Assembly: GCF_009931435.1 (NCBI RefSeq)
Contig: NZ_CP043414.1
DNA from: Escherichia coli
GTDB taxonomy: Bacteria > Pseudomonadota > Gammaproteobacteria > Enterobacterales > Enterobacteriaceae
Length of the DNA stretch: 64,000 bases
Strand: one strand, 5' to 3'
The notes under the pieces were generated by a model that was not told the origin of the DNA, did no database searches, and saw only the letters and a list, made by a program, of their open reading frames with translations. Within the stretch, counting starts at the first letter, position 1, and each line of letters starts with the position of its first letter. This document shows positions 1,717 through 21,546 of the stretch, in pieces. A program made the position numbers and the translations under genes.

Positions 1717-4218
1717 ATGGCCCTGATTGTGGAATTTATTTGTGAGCTACCTAACGGCGTACATGCCCGTCCGGCAAGCCACGTTGAAACGCTGTGTAAT
1801 ACTTTTTCATCACAAATTGAGTGGCATAACCTGCGCACTGACCGCAAGGGCAACGCCAAAAGCGCCCTTGCGCTGATTGGCACCGATACGCTGGTGGGCG
1901 ATAGCTGCCAGTTACTGATTTCCGGGGCCGATGAACAGGAAGCGCATCAGCGTTTAAGCCAATGGCTGCGCGATGAATTTCCCCACTGCGACGCGCCGCT
2001 GGCGGAAATAAAATCTGACGAACTGGAGCCGCTGCCGGTATCATTAACCAACCTGAATCCGCGTATTATCCGCGCCCGCACCGTATGCAGTGGTAGCGCA
2101 GGCGGCATTCTGACGCCAATCTCTTCTTTAGATCTCAACGCGCTGGGTAACCTCCCCGCAACCAACGGCGTTGACGCCGAGCAATCCGCGCTGGAAAACG
2201 GCCTGACGCTGGTACTGAAAAATATTGAGTTTCGTCTGCTGGATAGCGACGGTGCTACCAGCGCGATTCTGGAAGCTCACCGCTCCCTGGCTGGCGATAC
2301 TTCCCTGCGCGAACATTTACTGGCAGGCGTCAGCGCCGGATTAAGCTGCGCCGAAGCAATTGTCGCCAGTGCGAATCACTTTTGCGAAGAGTTCGCCCGT
2401 TCCAGCAGCAGCTACCTGCAAGAACGCGCGCTGGATGTGCGCGATGTCTGCTTCCAGTTACTCCAGCAAATCTACGGCGAGAAACGCTTTCCGGCACCGG
2501 GCAAGCTGACGCAGCCCGCCATTTGTATGGCGGATGAACTGACCCCTAGCCAGTTCCTCGAACTGGATAAAAATCACCTCAAAGGATTGTTGCTCAAAAG
2601 TGGCGGCACTACCTCACACACGGTGATCCTTGCCCGTTCGTTCAACATTCCGACGCTGGTTGGTGTGGATATTGATGCCCTTACTCCGTGGCAGCATCAA
2701 ACGATTTATATCGACGGCAACGCTGGGGCGATTGTGGTTGATCCTGGAGAAGCCGTAGCCCGTTATTATCAGCAAGAAGCCCGCGTACAGAACGCCCTTC
2801 GTGAGCAACAGCGTGTCTGGCTGACCCAACAAGCCCGTACCGCTGACGGTATCCGCATTGAAATTGCCGCTAACATCGCTCACTCCGTCGAAGCGCAGGC
2901 CGCATTCGGCAATGGTGCGGAAGGCGTTGGTTTGTTCCGCACTGAAATGCTCTATATGGATCGCACCAGTGCACCGGGCGAAAGCGAGCTGTACAACATT
3001 TTTTGTCAGGCGCTGGAGTCCGCCAACGGACGCAGCATTATTGTGCGCACTATGGATATTGGCGGTGACAAACCCGTTGATTATCTGAATATTCCCGCAG
3101 AGGCAAACCCGTTCCTCGGTTATCGCGCCGTACGTATTTATGAAGAGTACGCCTCGTTGTTTACCACGCAGCTACGATCGATCCTGCGCGCCTCCGCTCA
3201 TGGCAGCCTGAAAATCATGATCCCGATGATCTCTTCAATGGAAGAGATCTTATGGGTGAAAGAAAAACTGGCGGAAGCTAAACAGCAGCTGCGTAACGAA
3301 CACATTCCGTTTGATGAGAAGATCCAGCTCGGTATCATGCTTGAGGTGCCGTCAGTAATGTTCATCATCGATCAATGCTGTGAAGAGATTGATTTCTTTA
3401 GTATTGGTAGTAATGATCTGACGCAATATCTGCTGGCAGTGGATCGCGATAACGCTAAGGTAACTCGTCACTACAACAGCCTGAATCCGGCATTCTTACG
3501 AGCGCTTGATTACGCCGTGCAGGCAGTGCATCGCCAGGGCAAATGGATTGGTCTGTGCGGTGAACTGGGGGCGAAAGGTTCCGTGCTGCCGTTGCTGGTC
3601 GGTTTAGGGCTGGATGAGTTGAGCATGAGTGCACCGTCAATTCCGGCGGCGAAAGCGCGGATGGCGCAACTTGATAGCCGCGAATGCCGCCAGTTACTCA
3701 ACCAGGCAATGGCCTGCCGTACTTCGCTGGAAGTGGAACACCTGCTGGCACAATTCCGCATGACGCAACAGGACGCACCGTTGGTCACCGCCGAGTGCAT
3801 CACGCTGGAAAGCGACTGGCGCAGCAAAGAAGAAGTGCTCAAAGGCATGACCGATAACCTGCTGCTGGCGGGCCGCTGCCGCTATCCGCGTAAACTGGAA
3901 GCCGACTTGTGGGCGCGCGAGGCCGTTTTCTCTACCGGTCTGGGCTTTAGTTTTGCCATTCCACACAGCAAATCAGAACACATTGAGCAGTCCACCATCA
4001 GCGTGGCGCGTCTGCAAGCGCCAGTGCGCTGGGGCGATGATGAAGCACAATTCATCATTATGTTAACCCTTAACAAACACGCTGCCGGCGATCAGCATAT
4101 GCGCATTTTCTCGCGCCTCGCTCGCCGCATCATGCACGAAGAATTCCGTAACGCGCTGGTTAACGCCGCCTCTGCCGACGCTATCGCCAGCCTGCTGCAA
4201 CATGAACTGGAACTGTAA
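1717..4218 (+). CDS. ptsA: Multiphosphoryl transfer protein (HPr/EI/IIA fusion)
   Basis: 833-aa ORF with HPr-like N-terminus, PEP-utilising EI core and IIA-like C-terminus; synteny with frwC and fsaB. Confidence 0.9.
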
Positions 4219-7920: not shown

Positions 7921-10155
<2,235 letters not shown>

Positions 10156-10428
10156 TTATAATTGAATTAATCCACGGATGCGATAGTTGAGATCTTACAT
10201 ATTGTTGGTTAAAGAGATGTAGATCAAATTGATCGTAATTAAGACTTTTTGATTATGTCCGATTTCGGACAAATGCTTTATAAAAAAGGTTTTAGCTTCG
10301 TATTCTTCAAGAAATGAGGGAGAAAACAAGGCTGACTACCTTATTTTCTCACTCGCATTTCGAGGCAGCATTTTGTGCTCTGTTTAAAATTTGTGATCAC
10401 AGTGTGATTTTCACAAAAGGCACACTAT

Positions 10429-11322
<894 letters not shown>

Positions 11323-11361
11323 TTACCTCATCAATCGCTTGTAGTTATATGTTGTGTTGTG

Positions 11362-11392
11362 CACATCTATCCGTTTAGACGTCCAGATGTAA
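11362..11392 (-). promoter_or_regulatory. MetJ operator (tandem met boxes) in metF promoter
   Basis: Minus-strand reading ACATCTGGACGTCTAAACGGATAGATGT, tandem 8-bp repeats near consensus AGACGTCT, 45-75 bp upstream of metF start. Confidence 0.6.
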
Positions 11393-11701
11393 AGATGAAG
11401 GAAAAGCTGAAGGGCGTCAACCGAAAAATGACCAATGATGGTGAGGAAAAATCAGGGAAGATGAAAAAAACTCATCTTAATTAGAGGTAATAAAGAGATT
11501 TCTTTATAGCGCAATCAACCTCACTCGTTTTGACTGATATACAGGCAACACAACGGCACCTGTTCTCATTCGAAAAACAACGCCCTGCCACCGGATGGTG
11601 ATGCTAAAGCATCTGATTCGGCCTGCGCTCTCGTGTAGGCCGAATACAGAATCTGCGAAATCAACGGGTAACAAACAGTAGAGTCAACTCAGTGCGTACT
11701 T

Positions 11702-13261
11702 TTACTTAATATCTTTCACGCGCATACCGTTGATCTGTTCATCCGTGATGGTATTACCCGCTTTAAAGTAATCAACCACCGCGTGATAAACGTAATAACC
11801 GCCCGTCGTATTGCGCGCTTTACCCTCGGTAAACGCGGTAAAACCATCTCCACCATCAGCAAGGAAACTCTGAGTGGCAATGTGGTAAACCGTCGCATCT
11901 TCAATCGGTTTGCCATTCAGAGTCAGCGAGATAACCCGCTGACCAACCGGCTTGCTGCTGTCGTACTTCATTTCCAGGCCTTTCGATACCTGTAAAACGC
12001 CATTACTCAAACTTGCGCCGTGTTCCATCAAACCGCGTAATTGTTTACCCGTGAGTTCCATCGTCACCAGTTCGTTGGGGAACGGGAAGGTACTGATGAC
12101 GCCACCCATCGTAATTGCACCCGCCGGGATCTCATTGCGAATCCCACCAGAGTTGGTTAACGCCAACTGGGTATTTTTACCCGCCGCTACCAGTAAAGCG
12201 TCCGCCGCCAGGTTCCCCAGGGATGCCGATTCACCATAGGCACGTTTTAATTCAACTGGCGATTGCGCCACCGTTTGCTGCACGACTTCATCCAGCTTTT
12301 TATTCCAACTATCAATCACCTGTTTTGTTTGCGCATCGGGCTTCCACTCGTCGGCGTAAAGGGTTTTAAGCTCGAAGTTTTTCACCGTAAAAGTGTGCGG
12401 TTTCTCTTTGAAGTCGAGAACCAGTTTACCCACATCAATCCCTCCGCTGTCAGTGGAAAGGATGAGCGTATTGCCGACTTTAATCGGTTCCGGCGTACCC
12501 ACATGTGCATGTCCGGTGATCAAAATATCCAGCCCTTTCACCTGACTTGCCGTCTGTATATCTTTATCCAGCGCGCGACGCACATCTGTGCCTCCCATAC
12601 TGGACTGGCGGGCCGGAACACCTTCGTGAATCAGGGCGACGGTCAAATCAACCTTGCCTTTGAGTTCATCGATATAACGTTGTAACCACTTAATTTCATC
12701 ACGCGCTTCAATACCCACTCGCGTGGCAGCGGATACCGTGTCATTAAAGGCAAATACTCCGTGCAAACCAATCACACCAATTTTCACGCCGTCTTTTTCA
12801 ATAATGGTATATGGCTTATCCCAGAATGATTTACTGCTGTTCTGATAAAAAATATTACCCTGCACAATCGGGAATTTTGCCTGACTCAACTGTAATAGGG
12901 TGTTGTCCCAGCCGTGATCAAATTCATGATTCCCTATAGTGACCGCATCGAACGGCATGGTATTCATAATATCGATAATCGCCTTGCCTTTAGTCAGGCT
13001 GCTGATATACGGCCCGGTAAAATAGTCACCCGCATCAAAAAACCAGGTCGCTTTGTTTTTAGCTTTTTCTTGTTTAACAAGCGTAGTGATATTTGCCCAG
13101 CCGCCAATATCCCGTTTACCGTCAGCAATCCACGGCACTTTATAAGGCTCTACATGTGCATGGAGGTCGTTGGTATAAATAATGGTGACATCTTTGGCGC
13201 AGGCCCAAAACGGCAGTGTTAATGCGATACCCGCAGCAAGCATTTTAATTTTCATAAACAA
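11702..13261 (-). CDS. Secreted bifunctional metallophosphatase/5'-nucleotidase family protein (paralog A)
   Basis: 519 aa; N-terminal signal peptide; calcineurin-like motifs DLHAHV, GDYFTG, GNHEFD, HEG, GHAHVG; C-terminal 5'-nucleotidase-like domain (UshA/CpdB architecture). Confidence 0.8.
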
Positions 13262-13313
13262 TCCCTTCCAGTGAGATAAAGGATTGCTACATTACGTTCT
13301 GAAAGGCTTTTTT

Positions 13314-13331
13314 ATGTGAGAATACTCACAT
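13314..13331. promoter_or_regulatory. Perfect palindrome ATGTGAG-AATA-CTCACAT in divergent intergenic region
   Basis: 18-bp dyad seen between the divergently transcribed nucleotidase A and Cys-rich protein genes; candidate operator. Confidence 0.3.
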
Positions 13332-13387
13332 CCAGAGGCGATAACTGTAGGACAAAATCAACGACCTTATGAAATCGTTGGTGATAT

Positions 13388-14515
13388 ATGTCAAATCTGT
13401 TTGCGATTAATGTCTGTAAAACGTTCGGTTGTCGAAATTTGGGATTGGCCTCATCGGAAGATTACAGTTGGCCAGACTATAAACTGGGTTTTCCGGCACT
13501 GCACTGCCAGGCATGCGGAAGTTACCCCCCTTTGTTTGATGAACAACAATTTCGTGACTGGTTGTCAGTTCACATGACTGCGTGTGCCATAGAAACAGGG
13601 CATTTTTGTCCATCATGCTATTGTAAAGAAAAGATTTTTTATGGCCACAACCCGCAGGGAACACAACGCGTTCAATGCCGTTCATGCAAAAAAGTCTGGA
13701 CTCCGAAACAGCAGCCAGCAAGAGAAATTACGTATCCCCAGTCCATTGAAACCGTTCAACTGTTCATGCCCTTTCAAGGAGCCAGCGCAGTACAAAAGCT
13801 CTATGTTTTAGTCAGTCTTGACGCCACTCGTGGCAACATCCTTCATCTCTCCACGAATTATACGCAACATCAGACAGGAGACAGTCTGCGGTACAGTTAC
13901 AGAGGCAATACAGAACCAACTGAGCACCATAGCGATATTGTGCAGAGGGTAGATATGCGTGAAGCGCAATTCTTGCGCCGGAGCCAGTTCGATGAAATTC
14001 AGTATGGCAGTGCTGTGCTCAAGCGCAACGGCAAGGGAGCCATACTACGCCCGGTTATCACGGCACACGGGCATTTCAGAATACTGAAAATCCGCTTTCC
14101 ACATGTCAAAACGCATATCATTTCACACGAATGTTTTCTGAGAGGCGCAATTATTACAGCCTGGGCAGATCAGTTCCGCCAACAACAAGGCGAACTTTGG
14201 TTCGTAGAAGAAGAAATCAGCGACCGTAACGCTGATATTCCCTGGCATTTTCAGGGAACGACATACCATGGTTGGTGGCAAAATCAGTGGCAACGCTGGG
14301 GGCAGGGGAATAACAGCAAGATGGTCTGCCTGCTCACAGGAGTCTCCTTAGAAAGGGGCGCAAATGTTTCTCTGGCAACCAGTCGTTGCTTTATCACATG
14401 GCTGACAGACCAACACGACTTTACCCAAAGCGCGTTATTATCCGCAGGTCGCGTAACGAAAATGCTGACCTCACTGGCGTTAAAATACAATGAATCGCTC
14501 ACTCCATCTTGTTAG
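13388..14515 (+). CDS. Cys-rich (putative zinc-ribbon) protein of unknown function
   Basis: 375-aa ORF; N-terminal clusters C-x2-C...C-x2-C (CQACGS, CPSCYC, CRSCKK) resembling zinc-ribbon modules; no confident family assignment. Confidence 0.55.
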   Translation: MSNLFAINVCKTFGCRNLGLASSEDYSWPDYKLGFPALHCQACGSYPPLFDEQQFRDWLSVHMTACAIETGHFCPSCYCKEKIFYGHNPQGTQRVQCRSCKKVWTPKQQPAREITYPQSIETVQLFMPFQGASAVQKLYVLVSLDATRGNILHLSTNYTQHQTGDSLRYSYRGNTEPTEHHSDIVQRVDMREAQFLRRSQFDEIQYGSAVLKRNGKGAILRPVITAHGHFRILKIRFPHVKTHIISHECFLRGAIITAWADQFRQQQGELWFVEEEISDRNADIPWHFQGTTYHGWWQNQWQRWGQGNNSKMVCLLTGVSLERGANVSLATSRCFITWLTDQHDFTQSALLSAGRVTKMLTSLALKYNESLTPSC

Positions 14516-14744
14516 TCAATACACTCGACAAACGACCATAAATTAATGGGATCACTATTTCTCATTTAATTAAATATATGAATGTATGACTGAAAAATAT
14601 AATCACAGTCAATGTTTAATTAATAACATTATTTGTTACTAAGATCACATAATACTTTCCTGACCTATGCTCTTATAAAAATAAGACACGGTGTTCCTTT
14701 TATTTAAATAATTCAACCAATGTAACAACCCCTATCAAGGAGGG

Positions 14745-16298
14745 ATGATGAGAACTGTATTTACGACTTTATCAGTCATATTCAGCGTGATGTTTTCTCA
14801 CAGTATACTAGCTCAGGACGTTACTATTTATTATACGAATGATATTCACGCACATGTCAATCCGGCAAAAATTCCCGCTGTTGATAAGAACAGACTTGTA
14901 GGTGGTATGGCTAATATTGCAGGCATCGTTAATGAAGCGAAGAAAAAAAACAAAGATGTCTTTTTCTTTGATGCAGGCGACTATTTTACCGGTCCGTATA
15001 TCAGTACCCTGACCAAAGGTGAAGCTATTATTGATATCATGAACACCATGCCCTTTGATGCGGTGTCCGTTGGTAATCACGAGTTCGATCACGGCGTGCC
15101 CAATATGGTATCTCAGTTATCAAAAGCAAAATTCCCCATTCTGCTGGGAAATATTTACTACACCGATACAAATAGACCAGTTTGGGATCATCCGTGGACC
15201 ATTATCGAAAAAGATGGTTTAAAGATTGGTGTGATTGGATTGCATGGTGCATTCGCTTTCTATGATACAGTCGCGGCAAAAGCACGTGAAGGCGTAGAAG
15301 CCAGAGACGAAATTAAATATTTAAATAAAGCACTTGCAGAATTAAAAGGTAAAGTCGACATTACCGTTTTGCTAATTCACGAAGGTGTTCCGGCGCGTCA
15401 ATCAAGCTTTGGTAGTAAAGATGTGGAGCGGCTACTACAGGCAGATATTGAGACAGCTAAAAAAGTGAATGGTGTTGATGTCTTAATTACCGGTCACGCA
15501 CATGTCGGAACACCGCAACCAATAAAAGTTAATAACACATTAATTGTATCTACCGATGCATACGGCACCGACATCGGAAAACTTGTGCTTGATTACAATC
15601 CGAAAACAAAGAAAATTGATAGTTATAATGGTGAGTTAATCACCATCTTTGCAGATCAATTTAAACCTGACACCATCGTTCAAAATACTATCGATAAATG
15701 GAGCGTAAAGCTTAACAAAATCACACAGGAAGTTGTCGGCCATTCTCCCGTAGTTTTAACACGTGAGTATGGCAGTTCTTCTTCTACCGGTAACCTTATT
15801 CTGGATGCAATGATGGAAAAAGCACCTGATGCCATTGCCGGATTTCAAAATAGCGGTGGGATGCGAGCTGATTTTCCTAAAGGTGATATCACACTGGGAG
15901 ATGTTATTAGCACATTCCCCTTTAATAATGACCTCATCGAGATGGATTTGACGGGCCGCGATCTCAAATCATTGATGACGCATGCAACCAATCTAACTAA
16001 CGGTGTGTTACAGGTTTCAAAAAGCGTTGCGGTTGTCTATGACAGCAAAAAACCACTCAACCAGCGGTTAATCTCTTTCACCATTAACGGCAAACCCGTG
16101 GAAGATAATCAAACATATCGTATTGCCACGCACTCCTTTTGTGCCAGTGGTGGTGACGGTTTTGAAGCATTTTTGAATGGAAAAAATGTGAAGACGATAC
16201 CGGGAACAACCTCGGCGGAATCTATCATCGATTATTTCAAAAATCATAAACCTGTCACCCCAGACTTAACTAAACGAGTCATGGACGTCGCCAAATAA
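14745..16298 (+). CDS. Secreted metallophosphatase/5'-nucleotidase family protein (paralog B)
   Basis: 517 aa; signal peptide; same metallophosphatase motif set as paralog A but most divergent of the three. Confidence 0.8.
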   Translation: MMRTVFTTLSVIFSVMFSHSILAQDVTIYYTNDIHAHVNPAKIPAVDKNRLVGGMANIAGIVNEAKKKNKDVFFFDAGDYFTGPYISTLTKGEAIIDIMNTMPFDAVSVGNHEFDHGVPNMVSQLSKAKFPILLGNIYYTDTNRPVWDHPWTIIEKDGLKIGVIGLHGAFAFYDTVAAKAREGVEARDEIKYLNKALAELKGKVDITVLLIHEGVPARQSSFGSKDVERLLQADIETAKKVNGVDVLITGHAHVGTPQPIKVNNTLIVSTDAYGTDIGKLVLDYNPKTKKIDSYNGELITIFADQFKPDTIVQNTIDKWSVKLNKITQEVVGHSPVVLTREYGSSSSTGNLILDAMMEKAPDAIAGFQNSGGMRADFPKGDITLGDVISTFPFNNDLIEMDLTGRDLKSLMTHATNLTNGVLQVSKSVAVVYDSKKPLNQRLISFTINGKPVEDNQTYRIATHSFCASGGDGFEAFLNGKNVKTIPGTTSAESIIDYFKNHKPVTPDLTKRVMDVAK

Positions 16299-16332
16299 AA
16301 TATCATTTATCAGTCTATTTATTTAACAAGGA

Positions 16333-17958
16333 ATGCGAATGAAAACAGTGCAGCGTACTTTACTTGCCGCAACATTGCTGACTATTTTTTCGGTTTCAGT
16401 CATGGCGCAGGATGTCACGATTATTTATACAAATGATCTTCACGCTCATGTGGATTCTTATAAAGTGCCGTATATCGCAGACGGAAAACGCGACATTGGC
16501 GGCTTTGCCAATATATCTACTTTAGTAAAACAAGAGAAAGCGAAAAATAAAGCCACCTTTTATTTTGATGCTGGAGACTATTTCACCGGCCCTTATATCA
16601 GCAGTCTGACAAAGGGCGAAGCAATAATTGACATTATGAATACCATGCCTTTTGACGCAGTATCAATCGGTAATCATGAGTTTGACCATGGCTGGGATAA
16701 TGCCCTGCGACAATTAAGCAAAGCGAATTTTCCTGTTTTATTGGGCAATGTTTATCATAAAGAGAGTGAGAAACCCTTCTGGAACAAGCCCTACACCATC
16801 CTGGAAAAAGATGGCATCAAGATTGGTATTATTGGGCTACACGGCGTATTTGCATTTAATGATACGGTCTCGGAGCTCTCTCTCCAGGGACTCGATAATG
16901 ACAATAATAACCGCTTTGATAAATCTTCCGAGACCCTTAAGAATCAGGGGATTGAAGCACGTGATGAAGTGAAGTATTTGCAACATTATATCGACGAGTT
17001 ACGTGATAAGGTTGACCTCACTGTGGCGCTGGTTCATGAAGGCGTTCCGGCGCGTCAGTCCAGCATTGGCAATACAGATGTTAGACGCGCTCTTGATAAA
17101 GATATTCAAACCGCTAGCAAGGTGAAAGGATTGGATATTCTGATTACCGGGCATGCCCACGTCGGAACGCCAGAACCAATCAAAGTCGGCAACACCTTAA
17201 TCCTTTCAACTGATAGTGGCGGTATCGATATTGGTAAATTAGTCCTTGATGTCAACCCTACAGCTCGTACCCATAAAATGAAGAGCTTTGAGCTGAAAAC
17301 AGTTTATGCCGATGAATGGATACCCGATCCAACGACACAAAAAGTTATCAATGGCTGGAATAAAAAACTGGCGGATATTGTACGCCAACCAGTGGGTGAA
17401 TCATCGATTGCATTAACTCGCGCCTATGGTGAGTCATCGCAACTAGGCAACCTGTTTACCGATGCAATGCTTGTCGCTGCTCCGACTGCACAGATTGCAT
17501 TGATAAACTCCGGCAGCTTACGTGCGGATATAAATGCAGGCACGATTACCTTTGGCGACATTACCAGTACATTCCCCTTCAAGAATGAACTTACTGAAAT
17601 GGATCTCAGCGGTAAGGATCTGCGTAACCTACTGGAACACGGGGCATCGCTTACCAATGGCATCCTGCAAATGTCAAAAGGCGCAGAAATGCGCTATACC
17701 CCGCAGAAACCAGTAGGTCAGCGCATAGTATCTTTTAAAATTAATAGTGAAGAGATCGTTGATACGAATATTTACCATGTTGCAACAACGACTTTCCTTG
17801 CACTGGGGGGCGATGGTTTTCTGGCATTCAAAGAAGGGAAAAATGTTCAGGTCCGCGCCGGAAATAACATGTCCGATGTCGTGATCGATTATTTGAAGAA
17901 AGGCCACAAGATTACGCCTGCACAGGTAAATGAAATGCGGGTGGACGTTAGCAAATAA
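16333..17958 (+). CDS. Secreted metallophosphatase/5'-nucleotidase family protein (paralog C)
   Basis: 541 aa; closely related to paralog A over most of its length, with a 20-aa insertion (ELSLQGLDNDNNNRFDKSSE...). Confidence 0.8.
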   Translation: MRMKTVQRTLLAATLLTIFSVSVMAQDVTIIYTNDLHAHVDSYKVPYIADGKRDIGGFANISTLVKQEKAKNKATFYFDAGDYFTGPYISSLTKGEAIIDIMNTMPFDAVSIGNHEFDHGWDNALRQLSKANFPVLLGNVYHKESEKPFWNKPYTILEKDGIKIGIIGLHGVFAFNDTVSELSLQGLDNDNNNRFDKSSETLKNQGIEARDEVKYLQHYIDELRDKVDLTVALVHEGVPARQSSIGNTDVRRALDKDIQTASKVKGLDILITGHAHVGTPEPIKVGNTLILSTDSGGIDIGKLVLDVNPTARTHKMKSFELKTVYADEWIPDPTTQKVINGWNKKLADIVRQPVGESSIALTRAYGESSQLGNLFTDAMLVAAPTAQIALINSGSLRADINAGTITFGDITSTFPFKNELTEMDLSGKDLRNLLEHGASLTNGILQMSKGAEMRYTPQKPVGQRIVSFKINSEEIVDTNIYHVATTTFLALGGDGFLAFKEGKNVQVRAGNNMSDVVIDYLKKGHKITPAQVNEMRVDVSK

Positions 17959-17970
17959 TAAAAAAATTAT

Positions 17971-18007
17971 AATGCCATTCATTCACTGAATGGCATTATT
18001 TTTCTCT
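17971..18007 (+). terminator. Hairpin plus T-run between nucleotidase C and the tsx-like gene
   Basis: AATGCCATTCA-TTCAC-TGAATGGCATT followed by ATTTTTCTC. Confidence 0.45.
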
Positions 18008-18036
18008 AAATCAACAATAGATAATGAGATATATTT

Positions 18037-18897
18037 ATGTGTATAAAAAAGCACGGGATAGCTTTATCGATTCTATTAATACCTTGCATTGGAAACGCTC
18101 AGGAAATTAAAAGTGAGGAAGGCTGGTTACATCAAAGCTTGAATGTCATTGGTCGCACAGACTCTCGCTTTGGCCCAAGGCTGACTAACGACCTCTACCC
18201 TGAATATACTGTAGCAGGAAGAAAAGACTGGTTTGATTTTTATGGTTATGTTGATCTACCAAAATTCTTTGGCGTCGGCAGTCACTATGATGTTGGGATC
18301 TGGGATGAGGGCTCACCACTATTTACGGAAATAGAACCTCGGTTTTCCATTGACAAATTGACCGGATTAAATCTTGCGTTCGGCCCTTTTAAAGAATGGT
18401 TCATTGCAAACAACTATGTCTATGATATGGGTGACAACCAGTCATCCCGGCAAAGTACATGGTATATGGGGCTTGGTACAGATATCGACACGGGTCTACC
18501 AATTAAGCTTTCTGCCAATATATACGCCAAGTATCAGTGGCAAAACTATGGTGCCGCTAATGAAAATGAATGGGACGGATATCGATTCAAAATAAAATAT
18601 AGCATTCCTCTTACCCATTTATTCGGAGGGCGATTGGTATACAATAGTTTTACTAACTTTGATTTTGGCTCCGATCTTGCGGACAAATCACACAATAATA
18701 AACGAACCAGTAATGCTATTGCTTCAAGCCATATCCTTTCCCTGCTATATGAACACTGGAAATTTGCATTTACACTACGTTATTTTCACAACGGTGGACA
18801 ATGGAATGCTGGGGAGAAAGTTAACTTCGGAGATGGTCCATTTGAATTAAAAAACACAGGATGGGGAACCTATACTACTATTGGTTATCAATTTTAA
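18037..18897 (+). CDS. Tsx-family nucleoside-specific outer-membrane channel paralog
   Basis: 286 aa; signal peptide; long collinear similarity to E. coli Tsx ([72 protein letters not shown]-terminal GY-F). Confidence 0.85.
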
Positions 18898-19078
18898 ATC
18901 AGGTGATGTTTTAGATATTTTTACTTAATGCCATTTTGTAATTGTCATAAATAACTTCACCATTCACACTGTGAATTCATCGCTCAACACAAAAGCCCCC
19001 TTATTACCGGGGCACTGACCAAAGGCAAAATGACAATCAATCACCACCTCCGCAGGAGGTGGTTTAGAGGTGACAACA

Positions 19079-19104
19079 AAAGCTGGCAACTGCCAGCTTT
19101 TGTT
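19079..19104. terminator. Symmetric, bidirectional-type hairpin downstream of metL
   Basis: AAAAGCTGGCA-ACT-GCCAGCTTTT with U-tracts on both strands, immediately 3' of the metL stop. Confidence 0.55.
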
Positions 19105-19113
19105 CAATAATCA

Positions 19114-21546
19114 CTACAACAACTGCGCCAGACGGTTAATATCCGACTGAATCGCCCCGGCGGTGACGTCGCGCCCTGCGCCTGGCCCACGGATCACCAG
19201 CGGGTTGTCGCGATACCAGCGGCTTTCGATGGCAAAGACGTTATCGCACGGTAGTAGTGATGCCAGCGGATGGTCTTCTCGCACCGCTTCCACGCCTACT
19301 CGCGCTTTGCCGTTAGCATCGAAACGCGCCACGTAGCGCAACACCAGCCCCATTTCACGGGCCGCTTCCAACCGTTGTACCATCTGCTCATTAAGTTCAT
19401 CGCCATTTTCAAAGAAATGGTCGATGCTGCCACCTTCGCAATGGGTTGGCACCAGTGATTCAACACGCACCTGGTCCGGTTCAATGTTGTAACCCGCTTC
19501 ACGCGCCAGAATCACCAGCTTGCGCATCACGTCTTTGCCGGAGAGGTCATCACGCGGGTCAGGTTCAGTTAAGCCCTGCTGCCACGCCTGATCCACCAGC
19601 TCGGTAAACGGCACGCTACCGTCGAATTGCAGGAACAGCCAGGAGAGCGTGCCGGAGAAGATCCCGCTGATCGACAAAATAGTGTCGCCGCTGTCGATCA
19701 GATCGCGCACGGTATGGTTGATCGGCAAACCTGCGCCGACGGTGGCGTTGTATAGCCAGTGACGCCCGGTTTTTTCGAACGCGTCGTGGATCTGTCGATA
19801 TTTATTGCTGTCGCTGGCTCCCGCCAGTTTGTTGGCACTGATGACGTGGAAACCGTGGCTGGCGAAATCGAGATACTGATCAGCAAGCTGCTGGCTGGCA
19901 GTAACGTCCAGCACAACTAAATCATCATACGGATGGGCACGCATCCACAGGAACAGCGACTCTTCATCCTGTTCGACGGCTTCATCATTAAAGAAGGCTA
20001 GCGCACGGCTGGCGTCCAGCCCGTCATAGCTCAACAGGCTGCGACGGCTGTCCACCACGCCTGCCAGCACAAATTCAAAGCCGGTGCGCGCCGAGAGTGT
20101 ACTCTGCTCACGGGCGAACAGTTCCAGCCAGCGGGAACCGATATTGCCCTTACCGAACAATACCAGGCCGATGCGTTTTTCTGCGCGGAAGACGGACTGA
20201 TGCAGCCCCTGAATCAGGCTTTCGGTCGGGCCGGTGCGCAGTACTGCCACCAGGCTGATGCCGTCATCGGACTGCCAGGTAAACTCGACCGGCTGGCCTT
20301 TCAGTTGCTGCCAGAAGCGGTGGCAATGCAGCGGGTTACGGGTGACGCCCGCCCCAACCATCGCCACCAGCGCCAGCCCCTGACGCAGACGCAGTTCGCC
20401 GGGTAATCCTGCTTCGTCGAGGATTTTCAGCGCACTGTCGGCCACTTCCGAGGTGTAGCAAAATTGCAGCAACTGGCGATCGTTATGCACGCCAACTGCC
20501 AGTGGGCGCACCTGAGCACGTTTCAGGATTTGGTCGATCTCTTTATGCGCCAGTTTAAAATCCTGACTGGCGGGCACCTGAAACTCAATCAAACAGACAT
20601 CATCGTGGCTGGTGACAATACGCGCGCCAGTACCTGAGGCCAGCACGCGTTCAATGCGCGTGGAACCTTGATCCGGCGTGTAGCTACAGCGCAGCTGCAG
20701 GTCGATTTCGCTGCCAGAAACTGGCTGTAAAGTACGGGCGTGAAGAACGGGGGCCGCCAGACGCGCCAGTTCGCTGGCTTCATCCAGACGCAGCAACGGC
20801 AGCAGGCAGGCGTCTTTCACTTTACGCGGGTCGGCGCTATATACCCCGGCGACATCGCTCCAGATGGTTACGCGGGAAACTCCCGCCAGCGCACCGATTT
20901 GTGTCGCGGAATAGTCGGAACCGTTACGCCCCAGCAGCACCGTTTCACCGGCGTTGTTACGGCTGATAAACCCGGTCACCACCAGACGTTTGCCCGGATG
21001 TTGTACCAGTAGCTGTTGCAGCAACGGGTAAGAAAGCCCTTCATCAACCTGCGGCTGCGCGGCGCGTTCAGCGCGTAAAAACTCGCGGGCATCAAGCCAG
21101 GCCGCTGGCAGCCCTTGTTGATTAAGTACCGCAGACATCAGGCGCGCCGACCACACTTCACCGTGGCCCACCACTTCCGCATACACCGCATCGTTAATAC
21201 CGCTGTCGAGCAGCGCCGCCAGGCGTTCCAGATCGCTGACAAAAGCGCTAATGAGGCTATCGGCTTCTTCAGCGGGTAGCAGGCCGCTAATCAGATCGCA
21301 CTGATAGCGACGCAGCGTTTGTTGAACCTGATGCGCAGAGAGACGATCGGTCTGGCTTAGTTTCAACCAGTTAATCAACTGGTTAGTGGTGCTACCGGCG
21401 GCGGAAACCACCATCATATCGTCAGGCTGAGAGTACTCCGCCATAATGCCCGCGACACGCAAATAACACTTCACATCAGCCAGACTACTGCCACCAAATT
21501 TATGCAGTTGACGACCTTTCGCCCCTGCCTGCGCAATCACACTCAT
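19114..21546 (-). CDS. metL: Bifunctional aspartokinase II / homoserine dehydrogenase II
   Basis: 810-aa ORF; start overlaps metB stop region (operon metBL). Confidence 0.95.
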   Translation of the reverse strand: MSVIAQAGAKGRQLHKFGGSSLADVKCYLRVAGIMAEYSQPDDMMVVSAAGSTTNQLINWLKLSQTDRLSAHQVQQTLRRYQCDLISGLLPAEEADSLISAFVSDLERLAALLDSGINDAVYAEVVGHGEVWSARLMSAVLNQQGLPAAWLDAREFLRAERAAQPQVDEGLSYPLLQQLLVQHPGKRLVVTGFISRNNAGETVLLGRNGSDYSATQIGALAGVSRVTIWSDVAGVYSADPRKVKDACLLPLLRLDEASELARLAAPVLHARTLQPVSGSEIDLQLRCSYTPDQGSTRIERVLASGTGARIVTSHDDVCLIEFQVPASQDFKLAHKEIDQILKRAQVRPLAVGVHNDRQLLQFCYTSEVADSALKILDEAGLPGELRLRQGLALVAMVGAGVTRNPLHCHRFWQQLKGQPVEFTWQSDDGISLVAVLRTGPTESLIQGLHQSVFRAEKRIGLVLFGKGNIGSRWLELFAREQSTLSARTGFEFVLAGVVDSRRSLLSYDGLDASRALAFFNDEAVEQDEESLFLWMRAHPYDDLVVLDVTASQQLADQYLDFASHGFHVISANKLAGASDSNKYRQIHDAFEKTGRHWLYNATVGAGLPINHTVRDLIDSGDTILSISGIFSGTLSWLFLQFDGSVPFTELVDQAWQQGLTEPDPRDDLSGKDVMRKLVILAREAGYNIEPDQVRVESLVPTHCEGGSIDHFFENGDELNEQMVQRLEAAREMGLVLRYVARFDANGKARVGVEAVREDHPLASLLPCDNVFAIESRWYRDNPLVIRGPGAGRDVTAGAIQSDINRLAQLL

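Follow-up and report, generated by a model that had tools for sequence, protein, structure and literature searches.

A putative two-layer locus for nucleotide scavenging between metF and metL of Escherichia coli and its candidate transposase-derived partner

Introduction

Between the methionine genes metL and metF, avian pathogenic Escherichia coli (APEC) BEN2908 and other extraintestinal pathogenic (ExPEC) and adherent-invasive (AIEC) strains carry a region that has been catalogued as GR31 (PMC12928451). The portions of that account considered here describe three UshA-like open reading frames (ORFs) with preserved active sites and a Tsx homolog, for which a coordinated processing of nucleotides and nucleosides was proposed. 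Here, we examine the same region, with its five genes between metF and metL, in a stretch of 64,000 nucleotides of E. coli DNA (NCBI RefSeq assembly GCF_009931435.1, contig NZ_CP043414.1), hereafter called the window. Its genes encode three nucleotidase paralogs (Nuc1, Nuc2, and Nuc3), a Cys-rich protein, and a paralog of the nucleoside channel Tsx.

We consider it fairly likely that the metF-metL interval is a two-layer locus for the periplasmic scavenging of nucleotides to nucleosides, which would probably be activated by cyclic AMP (cAMP) and CRP and would have a transposase-derived partner. The first layer (11702-14515) would consist of Nuc1 divergent from the Cys-rich protein, with one perfect CRP site midway between them. 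In the second (14516-19113), a low-GC block with a CRP-like site of its own would add, downstream of that site, the older paralogs Nuc2 and Nuc3 and a dedicated outer-membrane channel of the Tsx type. Of the elements of this reading, those shown below are the gene content, the intact active sites, the CRP consensus with its conservation, the distribution, synteny, and selection of the genes, and, for the partner, its fold and homology.

Results

The ORF list contains five intact ORFs, of 519, 375, 517, 541, and 286 amino acids (aa), between metF (10429-11319, minus strand) and metL (19114-21546, minus strand), just where the original prediction for this DNA had placed five genes. Pfam and NCBIfam agree with the gene content then described, namely three metallophosphatases of the UshA superfamily with predicted leaders, a Tsx paralog, and a Cys-rich protein. 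The longest ORF of Nuc1 is 11702-13261, and an NCBI-style ATG at 13255 gives a product of 517 aa; the NCBI start codons of a 99.8%-identical genome result in 517, 516, and 539 aa for Nuc1, Nuc2, and Nuc3. The GC content is 0.51 for the whole window, 0.48 for the Nuc1/Cys layer, and 0.40-0.44 for the Nuc2-Nuc3-Tsx block (third-position GC, GC3, 0.36-0.43). All five genes are under purifying selection, as measured by the ratio of nonsynonymous to synonymous divergence (dN/dS) of the window against a short form of the locus, which has only Nuc1 and the Cys-rich gene, and against the allele of MS20659 (locus L049). The latter is a human blood isolate whose five-gene allele is ~94.5% identical to that of the window and was the reference for several of these values. 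The ratios are 0.02-0.04 for Nuc1, 0.08 for Nuc3, and 0.12 for both Nuc2 and the Tsx paralog.

Nuc1 (11702-13255, minus strand, 517 aa from the ATG) is a dinuclear metallophosphatase of the 5'-nucleotidase superfamily and is predicted to be secreted; Nuc2 (14745-16298, plus strand; GC 0.41, GC3 0.38) and Nuc3 (16333-17958, plus strand), the second and third paralogs, lie in the low-GC add-on block. The hidden Markov model searches that the original prediction had proposed were run and found the Pfam domains PF00149 (Metallophos) and PF02872 (5_nucleotid_C) in all three enzymes, and Channel_Tsx in the fifth protein. Nuc2 and Nuc3 are 56% and 68% identical to Nuc1, and the identity of the three to K-12 UshA is 25-27%. 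In an alignment with that enzyme, all three paralogs keep the metal ligands D41, H43, D84, N116, H217, and H252, the catalytic pair H117/D120, and the residues R410, F429/F498 (the stacking pair), N431, and D504; Q254 is His in all three, as in many members of the family. The complete set of metal-binding motifs that had been claimed for these proteins is therefore present, and the idea that they are pseudo-enzymes was rejected, all the catalytic and metal-binding residues being kept and dN/dS being 0.02-0.12. Read from the sequence, each N-terminus has a basic stretch, a hydrophobic stretch, and an A-x-A motif (ACA/KD, ILA/QD, and VMA/QD, the stroke marking the predicted cut). Nuc1 is ~98% identical to Protein Data Bank (PDB) entries 3IVD and 3IVE over residues 19-517, and the chain of 3IVD, a crystallized ortholog of Nuc1, begins where the mature protein is predicted to begin. 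These entries are labeled only "Nucleotidase"; they presumably come from structural genomics and show CFT073 c4898 with bound uridine and cytidine. Anchoring of Nuc1 as a lipoprotein via the Cys of "FWAC" was considered and rejected, because this Cys is replaced by Leu in the 3IVD ortholog.

The scores of the three enzymes against the NCBIfam models of characterized relatives lie far below the cut-offs: 153-165 against 600 for UshA, 83-102 against 486 for CpdB, 122-133 against 436 for NadN, 144-154 against 550 for SoxB, and 136-152 against 1050 for Nt5e. To judge by their sequences, Nuc1-3 are members of the 5'-nucleotidase/UshA superfamily and not orthologs of any characterized enzyme. The original prediction had deduced from the triplication that the enzymes have distinct specificities. 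The support for this is indirect: the known substrate-contact residues are identical among the three paralogs, but each paralog type has been kept as an ortholog in Enterobacter and Citrobacter. Nuc3 differs from Nuc1 and Nuc2 by an Asn/Asp-rich insertion of 23 residues (LQGLDNDNNNRFDKSSETLKN...) at residues ~181-203, in the metallophosphatase domain.

The last gene of the interval (18037-18897, plus strand) encodes the 286-aa Tsx paralog, an outer-membrane nucleoside channel by NCBIfam, Pfam, and BLASTP. It scores 491.8 bits against a cut-off of 311 with the Tsx model NF011686 over residues 2-286, matches Channel_Tsx with E = 5.6e-70, and is 65% identical to K-12 Tsx over the barrel. The gene content and the intact active sites make the role first suggested for the region, dephosphorylation of nucleotides and uptake of the nucleosides, a plausible one. 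In E. coli R32_14_1F (L001, 99.8% identical to the window), the Tsx paralog (9718-10563) is annotated as a pseudogene with "missing C-terminus." By tblastn its product is full-length and identical to that of the intact 286-aa ORF in the window, and the pseudogene label is probably an annotation artifact.

A divergent control region of 132 bp (13256-13387) lies between Nuc1 and the Cys-rich gene. At 13315-13330, ~65 bp from each start codon, it holds the CRP consensus TGTGAGAATACTCACA (TGTGA-N6-TCACA, 10/10), the only zero-mismatch copy in the 64-kb window. Its conservation extends to 15 loci from at least seven genera, in which the spacer also has three invariant blocks, at 13292-13305 (TTACGTTCTGAAAG), 13353-13358 (CAAAAT, -10-like), and 13372-13384 (AAATCGTTGGTGA). 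The second spacer (14516-14744), which had been noted for its AT-richness and indeed has a GC content of 0.28, is the probable promoter region of Nuc2-Nuc3(-Tsx). A CRP-like site with one mismatch (TGTTACTAAGATCACA, 9/10) occurs in it at 14634-14649, ~100 bp upstream of Nuc2, and is kept in the 94.5%-identical MS20659 allele. CRP-like sites with at most one mismatch are also found upstream of related loci in distant bacteria. These predicted sites suggest that the locus is probably CRP-dependent.

Other forms of control were considered. For CytR, no convincing operator was found, only two weak octamers: GTTGAATT and GTTACATT, adjacent at 14710-14726 (minus strand) between the CRP-like site and the Nuc2 start, each one mismatch from the CytR half-site GTTGCATT, with ~0.2 such octamers expected by chance in the spacer. 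Membership of the Pho regulon was rejected, no Pho-box-like sequence (up to four mismatches) being found in any of the three intergenic regions, and so was a structured RNA or riboswitch, as Rfam gave no match at E <= 1 in the spacers. An RNA hairpin that would mask the ribosome-binding site of the Cys-rich gene (13359-13380) was also discarded. Its right arm is invariant and its left arm varies; because the changes in the left arm are uncompensated, a protein site or a constraint on the ribosome-binding site itself is likelier.

The fifth protein of the locus, encoded by 13388-14515 (plus strand), is a Cys-rich cytoplasmic protein of 375 aa. Of its 14 Cys residues, eight form two Cys4 zinc ribbons (C10/C15/C40/C43 and C74/C77/C97/C100). 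AlphaFold2 gave a confident model only with a 50-sequence alignment of distant relatives (pLDDT 93.9, pTM 0.93; with 15 close homologs pLDDT was 39), and this model consists of the two ribbons, an alpha/beta core of the RNase H-like, DDE-transposase type, and a helical tail. On the window protein itself, Pfam and NCBIfam give only a weak zinc-ribbon signal of the InsA/IS1 kind, and its homologs are named "cytoplasmic protein." A profile search found the family to be small (162 clusters among 1.84 billion representatives), with full-length relatives of 400-520 aa and 19-30% identity.

The relationship to IS1 is clearer in the family as a whole. When columns 70-150 of the family alignment A4 were compared by hhalign with residues 4-87 of IS1 InsAB' (zinc ribbon and helix-turn-helix, HTH), the match had a probability of 96.5% and E = 7e-10; the second zinc ribbon is thus homologous to the N-terminal one of InsA. 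InsB was not matched by the family alignment in the same hhalign comparison. Pfam detects Zn_ribbon_InsA in 8-20 of 50 family members, and one relative scores 34.3 bits with NF050000, above its cut-off of 28. The IS1 transposase model NF033558 gives 20 bits, against a cut-off of 100, and over profile positions 1-62 only. In the clade of the window protein ~50 residues of the HTH are deleted, leaving 22 residues where the family median is 75. The residues invariant throughout the family are R198, H229, H247/E248, W296/W297/W301, N368, and the eight ribbon Cys. In a mapping made by secondary structure rather than by superposition, beta1 bears a conserved Thr/Ser instead of Asp, the position after beta4 is Arg-Pro, and only E248 is retained; since Asp is missing at both of these positions, the canonical DDE triad appears to have been lost.

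The neighborhoods of the distant relatives connect the family with nucleotide metabolism. The informative neighborhoods, which leave out two relatives without a record, one short contig, and one contig cut on the informative side, all have nucleotide or nucleoside genes adjoining the relative of the Cys-rich protein. These are a 5'-nucleotidase at a purL-linked site; a porin with a class B acid phosphatase and a class II cNMP phosphodiesterase; a NupC-type transporter with a nucleoside phosphorylase; a 5'-nucleotidase directly upstream; a nucleoside phosphorylase upstream; a divergent 5'-nucleotidase; and a phosphodiesterase-type gene with Tsx and a 5'-nucleotidase. The protein is thus probably a domesticated IS1-like transposase that would act as a locus regulator or sensor of nucleotide scavenging. 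More tentatively, we can imagine a small domesticated IS1-type family, with an InsA zinc ribbon, with or without the HTH, and a catalytically degenerate RNase H-like core, which in Enterobacteriaceae and in distant relatives would be the dedicated regulator or ligand sensor of nucleotide/nucleoside scavenging operons, together with CRP. The protein of the metF-metL clade, having lost the HTH, may act via its zinc ribbons or by protein-protein contact rather than by classical operator binding.

Comparison with K-12 reveals a replacement rather than a clean insertion. The claim that K-12 lacks the segment is correct: the metF-metL spacer of MG1655 is 348 bp. In blastn alignments, the sequence shared with K-12 extends to position 11469 of the window on the left and resumes at the metL stop codon on the right. 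These are the exact junctions that the original prediction had left to be established. They do not bound a clean insertion, because in K-12 the locus is replaced by a 198-bp sequence (L002 3151-3348) with no similarity to either occupied form. This replacement holds a REP-like palindrome (GCCGGATTCGTCGTAAACGCTTAATCCGGCC). On the metF side, the region upstream of the gene (11320-11469), with its met-box operator AGACGTCC (11377-11384), is shared with K-12, and over the 250 bp that end at 11469 the metF upstream sequence, met boxes included, is 99.2% identical. It is followed by a locus-specific spacer 3' of Nuc1 (11470-11701) that has no counterpart in K-12. At the other end, two hairpins lie 3' of both the Tsx paralog and metL, a GC-rich one (19042-19063) and a strong bidirectional intrinsic terminator (19076-19103; z = -6.6 and -6.5 on the two strands). 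Both are in DNA absent from K-12, so that the terminator is not that of K-12 metL. Of the two signals that the flanking genes were thought to have kept, only the met-box operator of metF is thus a core one.

A census of 5,426 complete E. coli genomes found Nuc1 and the Cys-rich gene in 1,838 (34%) and all five genes in 658 (12%); ~1,180 have the short form, where the 3' ends of the Cys-rich gene and metL overlap, and ~3,580 have neither gene. Two of the census matches are plasmid-borne and not chromosomal. The five-gene allele of the window is only ~94.5% identical to that of MS20659 and of similar human isolates. Between the window and the short form there is a break in divergence, synonymous divergence (dS) being 0.24 in Nuc1 and 1.8 in the adjacent Cys-rich gene. 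One strain, E. coli 2018-05-2CC (L050), has next to metL (3001-3705) C-terminal fragments of Nuc1 and of the Cys-rich gene, both annotated as pseudogenes. The deletion that produces the empty state seems to have been caught here in progress. The same strain has genes for a phosphotransferase system (PTS) EIIC component and a MalI-like protein between the remnant and metF.

A scan across species with the Cys-rich protein as query, one genome per species, produced 30 loci. The order metF-(variable cargo)-Nuc1-Cys-metL-metB, with Nuc1 and the Cys-rich gene divergent, occurs in ~20 species of at least eight genera. It was found in at least seven Citrobacter species or isolates; in Klebsiella pneumoniae, K. 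oxytoca, and K. spallanzanii; in Pseudocitrobacter and Superficieibacter; in Kluyvera, where it is decayed; in Salmonella enterica subsp. arizonae; and in Escherichia whittamii and another Escherichia isolate. Across genera, the amino-acid identity of Nuc1 at this site is 88-98%, a conservation similar to that of MetF and MetL; in comparisons with Citrobacter and Klebsiella its synonymous divergence has reached saturation, as has that of the flanks. The K-12 state is best read as a loss: Nuc1/Cys occupies this position in no fewer than eight genera and in ~1,180 short-form E. coli, and one strain has remnants of it. On this comparative evidence, Nuc1/Cys is most likely a long-standing occupant of the site that K-12-type genomes, about two thirds of E. 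coli, have lost. The interval from metF to Nuc1 is a site of variable cargo in other genera (loci L005, L007, L008, L016, L020, L023, L025, and L026): a LysR-type regulator with a carboxymuconolactone-decarboxylase-like gene, a PTS EIIC with a LacI/MalI-like regulator, or an acetyltransferase with other ORFs.

The Nuc2-Nuc3-Tsx block was seen at metF-metL in no other species among the cross-species loci, and the closest relative of Nuc2 outside E. coli is 76% identical. The block (14516-19113) looks like an E. coli-specific acquired add-on, and it is the only part of the interval that combines the atypical composition and the patchy distribution of an island. The original view of the 7.7 kb as a single insertion does not hold, as Nuc1/Cys is resident in at least eight genera and only Nuc2-Nuc3-Tsx, present in 658 of the 5,426 genomes, looks acquired. 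The boundaries of a classical genomic island were rejected as well: there is neither an integrase nor a tRNA gene among the ORFs and features of the island, no flanking direct repeats apart from an 11-bp chance repeat at its edges, and PADLOC and PHROGs searches of the island gave nothing relevant to mobility.

Elsewhere in the chromosome of Enterobacter and of some Citrobacter and Escherichia, there is an alternative arrangement, Nuc3-Tsx-Nuc2-Nuc1 followed by a divergent Cys-rich gene. The Enterobacter-type counterparts are ~90% (Nuc1), ~86% (Nuc3, 85-87%), and ~72% (Nuc2) identical to the proteins of the window, whose paralogs are 56-68% identical to one another. Since each paralog is closer to its counterpart than to the other paralogs of the window, the triplication must be older than these genera. 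Two draft assemblies, in which contamination is possible (E. coli SCPM-O-B-8794, L014, and Escherichia sp. MOD1-EC7003, L029), have, besides the short form at metF-metL, a second locus of the Enterobacter type at another site, Nuc3-Tsx-Nuc2(-Nuc2)-Nuc1 with the divergent Cys-rich gene.

Discussion

The locus, as we see it, would operate in the following manner. When glucose is scarce, CRP would switch the genes on, as its sites suggest. The three enzymes would dephosphorylate nucleotides in the periplasm, and the Tsx paralog, given its 65% identity to Tsx, would raise the flux of nucleosides through the outer membrane. Housekeeping transporters of the inner membrane would presumably import the products. 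The Cys-rich protein, as a domesticated IS1-like transposase, would be the locus-specific regulator or sensor. In this scheme, it is the periplasmic location, the substrates, the CRP dependence, the operon structure, and the role of the Cys-rich protein that we infer.

Several observations weigh against this scheme or restrict it. Because the family scores are so far below their cut-offs, the specificities of UshA, CpdB, NadN, SoxB, and Nt5e are not transferable to Nuc1-3. The hairpin between Nuc3 and the Tsx paralog (17969-17999, plus strand; a 13-bp stem followed by a U-run, z = -5.4) could be a terminator or an attenuator, so that the operon structure is putative. The loss of the InsA-type HTH weakens, for the clade of the window, the model of a simple DNA-binding regulator. 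In Pseudocitrobacter vendiensis the module (L005 8363-11101) has 92-95% DNA identity to the E. coli short form (L003), against only 85-86% for metF and metL on either side, a pattern that suggests a recent lateral replacement of the Nuc1-Cys module at the same site. Since the module has been exchanged between genera, the "ancestral" Nuc1/Cys pair would not be strictly vertical. Finally, the literature searches found no expression, binding, or enzyme data for the five genes.

Of the alternatives, a module for interaction with the host fares best, but we consider it unlikely. The enzymes would act on host extracellular ATP, AMP, NAD, or cyclic dinucleotides, making adenosine or removing danger signals much as the surface 5'-nucleotidases of Staphylococcus and Streptococcus do, and the add-on block would be an ExPEC fitness factor. 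The five-gene form is indeed common to model strains of APEC, uropathogenic (UPEC), neonatal meningitis (NMEC), and AIEC E. coli, according to the portions of the GR31 study considered (PMC12928451), and the enzymes resemble Nt5e-type ecto-nucleotidases and human CD73. However, the scores against the Nt5e and LPXTG nucleotidase models are only 80-152 bits, against a cut-off of 1050, and a cell-surface anchor is lacking. The first layer is conserved in environmental and commensal genera, the apparent control by CRP is that of catabolic genes, the relatives of the partner protein adjoin nucleoside transporters and phosphorylases, which are genes of nutrient use, and the isolate that matches the window most closely came from a goat.

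It is less probable still that the locus is chiefly a phosphate-scavenging module, with inorganic phosphate as the main product, used under phosphate limitation. Periplasmic nucleotidases serve the phosphate supply in some bacteria, and the reaction does release phosphate. Yet nothing resembling a Pho box, even with up to four mismatches, was found in the three intergenic regions, CRP sites occur instead, and the genes that accompany the module encode a nucleoside channel here and nucleoside transporters and phosphorylases in its relatives.

A third possibility concerns the Cys-rich gene alone, which would be a decaying or still-mobile IS1-like transposase, functionally unlinked to the nucleotidases. 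The InsA-type zinc ribbon, the DDE-transposase-like fold, and the label "IS1 family transposase" borne by relatives in AFDB50 speak for such a passenger. Against it, the gene is single-copy (a median of one place per E. coli genome), and neither its position nor its orientation changes across at least eight genera. No terminal or flanking repeats were found around it at the locus, and in the short form the overlap of its 3' end with metL leaves no room for terminal repeats. Its dN/dS of 0.10-0.26 (0.26 against the MS20659 allele) is that of a gene under constraint, and Asp is not conserved at the canonical positions of beta1 and after beta4. With 20 bits against the IS1 cut-off of 100, a family of only 162 clusters among 1.84 billion proteins, and nucleotide or nucleoside genes next to all the informative distant relatives, we regard a passenger as very improbable. 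An anti-phage defense system was rejected, as none of the five proteins has a PADLOC match.

The preferred reading, a scavenging locus in two layers, has consequences of unequal novelty. With its enzymes and its channel, the locus adds members to known families that are ordinary in kind and directed at periplasmic nucleotide scavenging; the island itself is already on record, and the Cys-rich partner is the newer point. At least Nuc1 is present in a third of E. coli, major ExPEC lineages among them, as well as in Klebsiella pneumoniae and Citrobacter, and three conserved paralogs with identical core active sites make the question of their substrates easily testable. A K-12-centered view can invert history, the apparent island being in part an old gene pair that K-12 lost. 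The most surprising component is the Cys-rich protein, which offers a testable case of transposase domestication in bacteria and a candidate for a new class of regulators of nucleoside metabolism; if this is true, a bacterial transposase would have been turned into a metabolic transcription factor.

The statement that the region is not a characterized operon needs qualification, since it has been catalogued as GR31 (PMC12928451, in the portions considered) and structures of Nuc1 exist (3IVD and 3IVE). In literature searches of limited coverage, nothing was found on the Cys-rich family, the short form, the cross-genus synteny, or the CRP sites, and searches by locus tags and PDB codes gave nothing relevant. 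The GR31 account (PMC12928451), in the passages considered, lists four ORFs and treats the region as one accessory block; those passages do not mention the Cys-rich gene, the two-gene short form, the synteny across genera, or the CRP sites.

Among characterized proteins, the nearest to Nuc1-3 are those of the UshA/5'-nucleotidase family (CD73, Thermus thermophilus 2Z1A, and the C-terminal half of Bacillus subtilis YfkN), with which they share the Metallophos and 5_nucleotid_C architecture. With UshA they have in common the ligands of the dinuclear metal site (Q254 being His), the catalytic His-Asp, the base-stacking Phe pair, and R410, and their N-termini read like signal peptides; they differ from it in their identity of only 25-27%, in the His for Gln254, and in forming a cluster of three paralogs, for which 3IVD and 3IVE, of the Nuc1 ortholog, are the sole experimental data. 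The Cys-rich protein shares its second zinc ribbon with IS1 InsA, and its relatives share the following HTH as well. It differs from the IS1 transposase in its extra N-terminal zinc ribbon, the deletion of the HTH in the clade of the window, and the lack of an InsB match; in addition, the canonical Asp positions are not kept, and the gene is single-copy, syntenic, free of terminal repeats, and under purifying selection. The closest parallel to the locus as a whole is K-12 Tsx and the CRP/CytR nucleoside regulon, with which it shares a channel of the Tsx family, CRP consensus sites upstream of nucleoside-related genes, and a common logic, in which nucleotides are converted outside the inner membrane and the nucleosides are then imported. 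Unlike K-12 Tsx, the channel of the window is a second, locus-linked paralog, and in place of a convincing CytR operator the locus has a linked candidate regulator that would be transposase-derived rather than of the LacI type.

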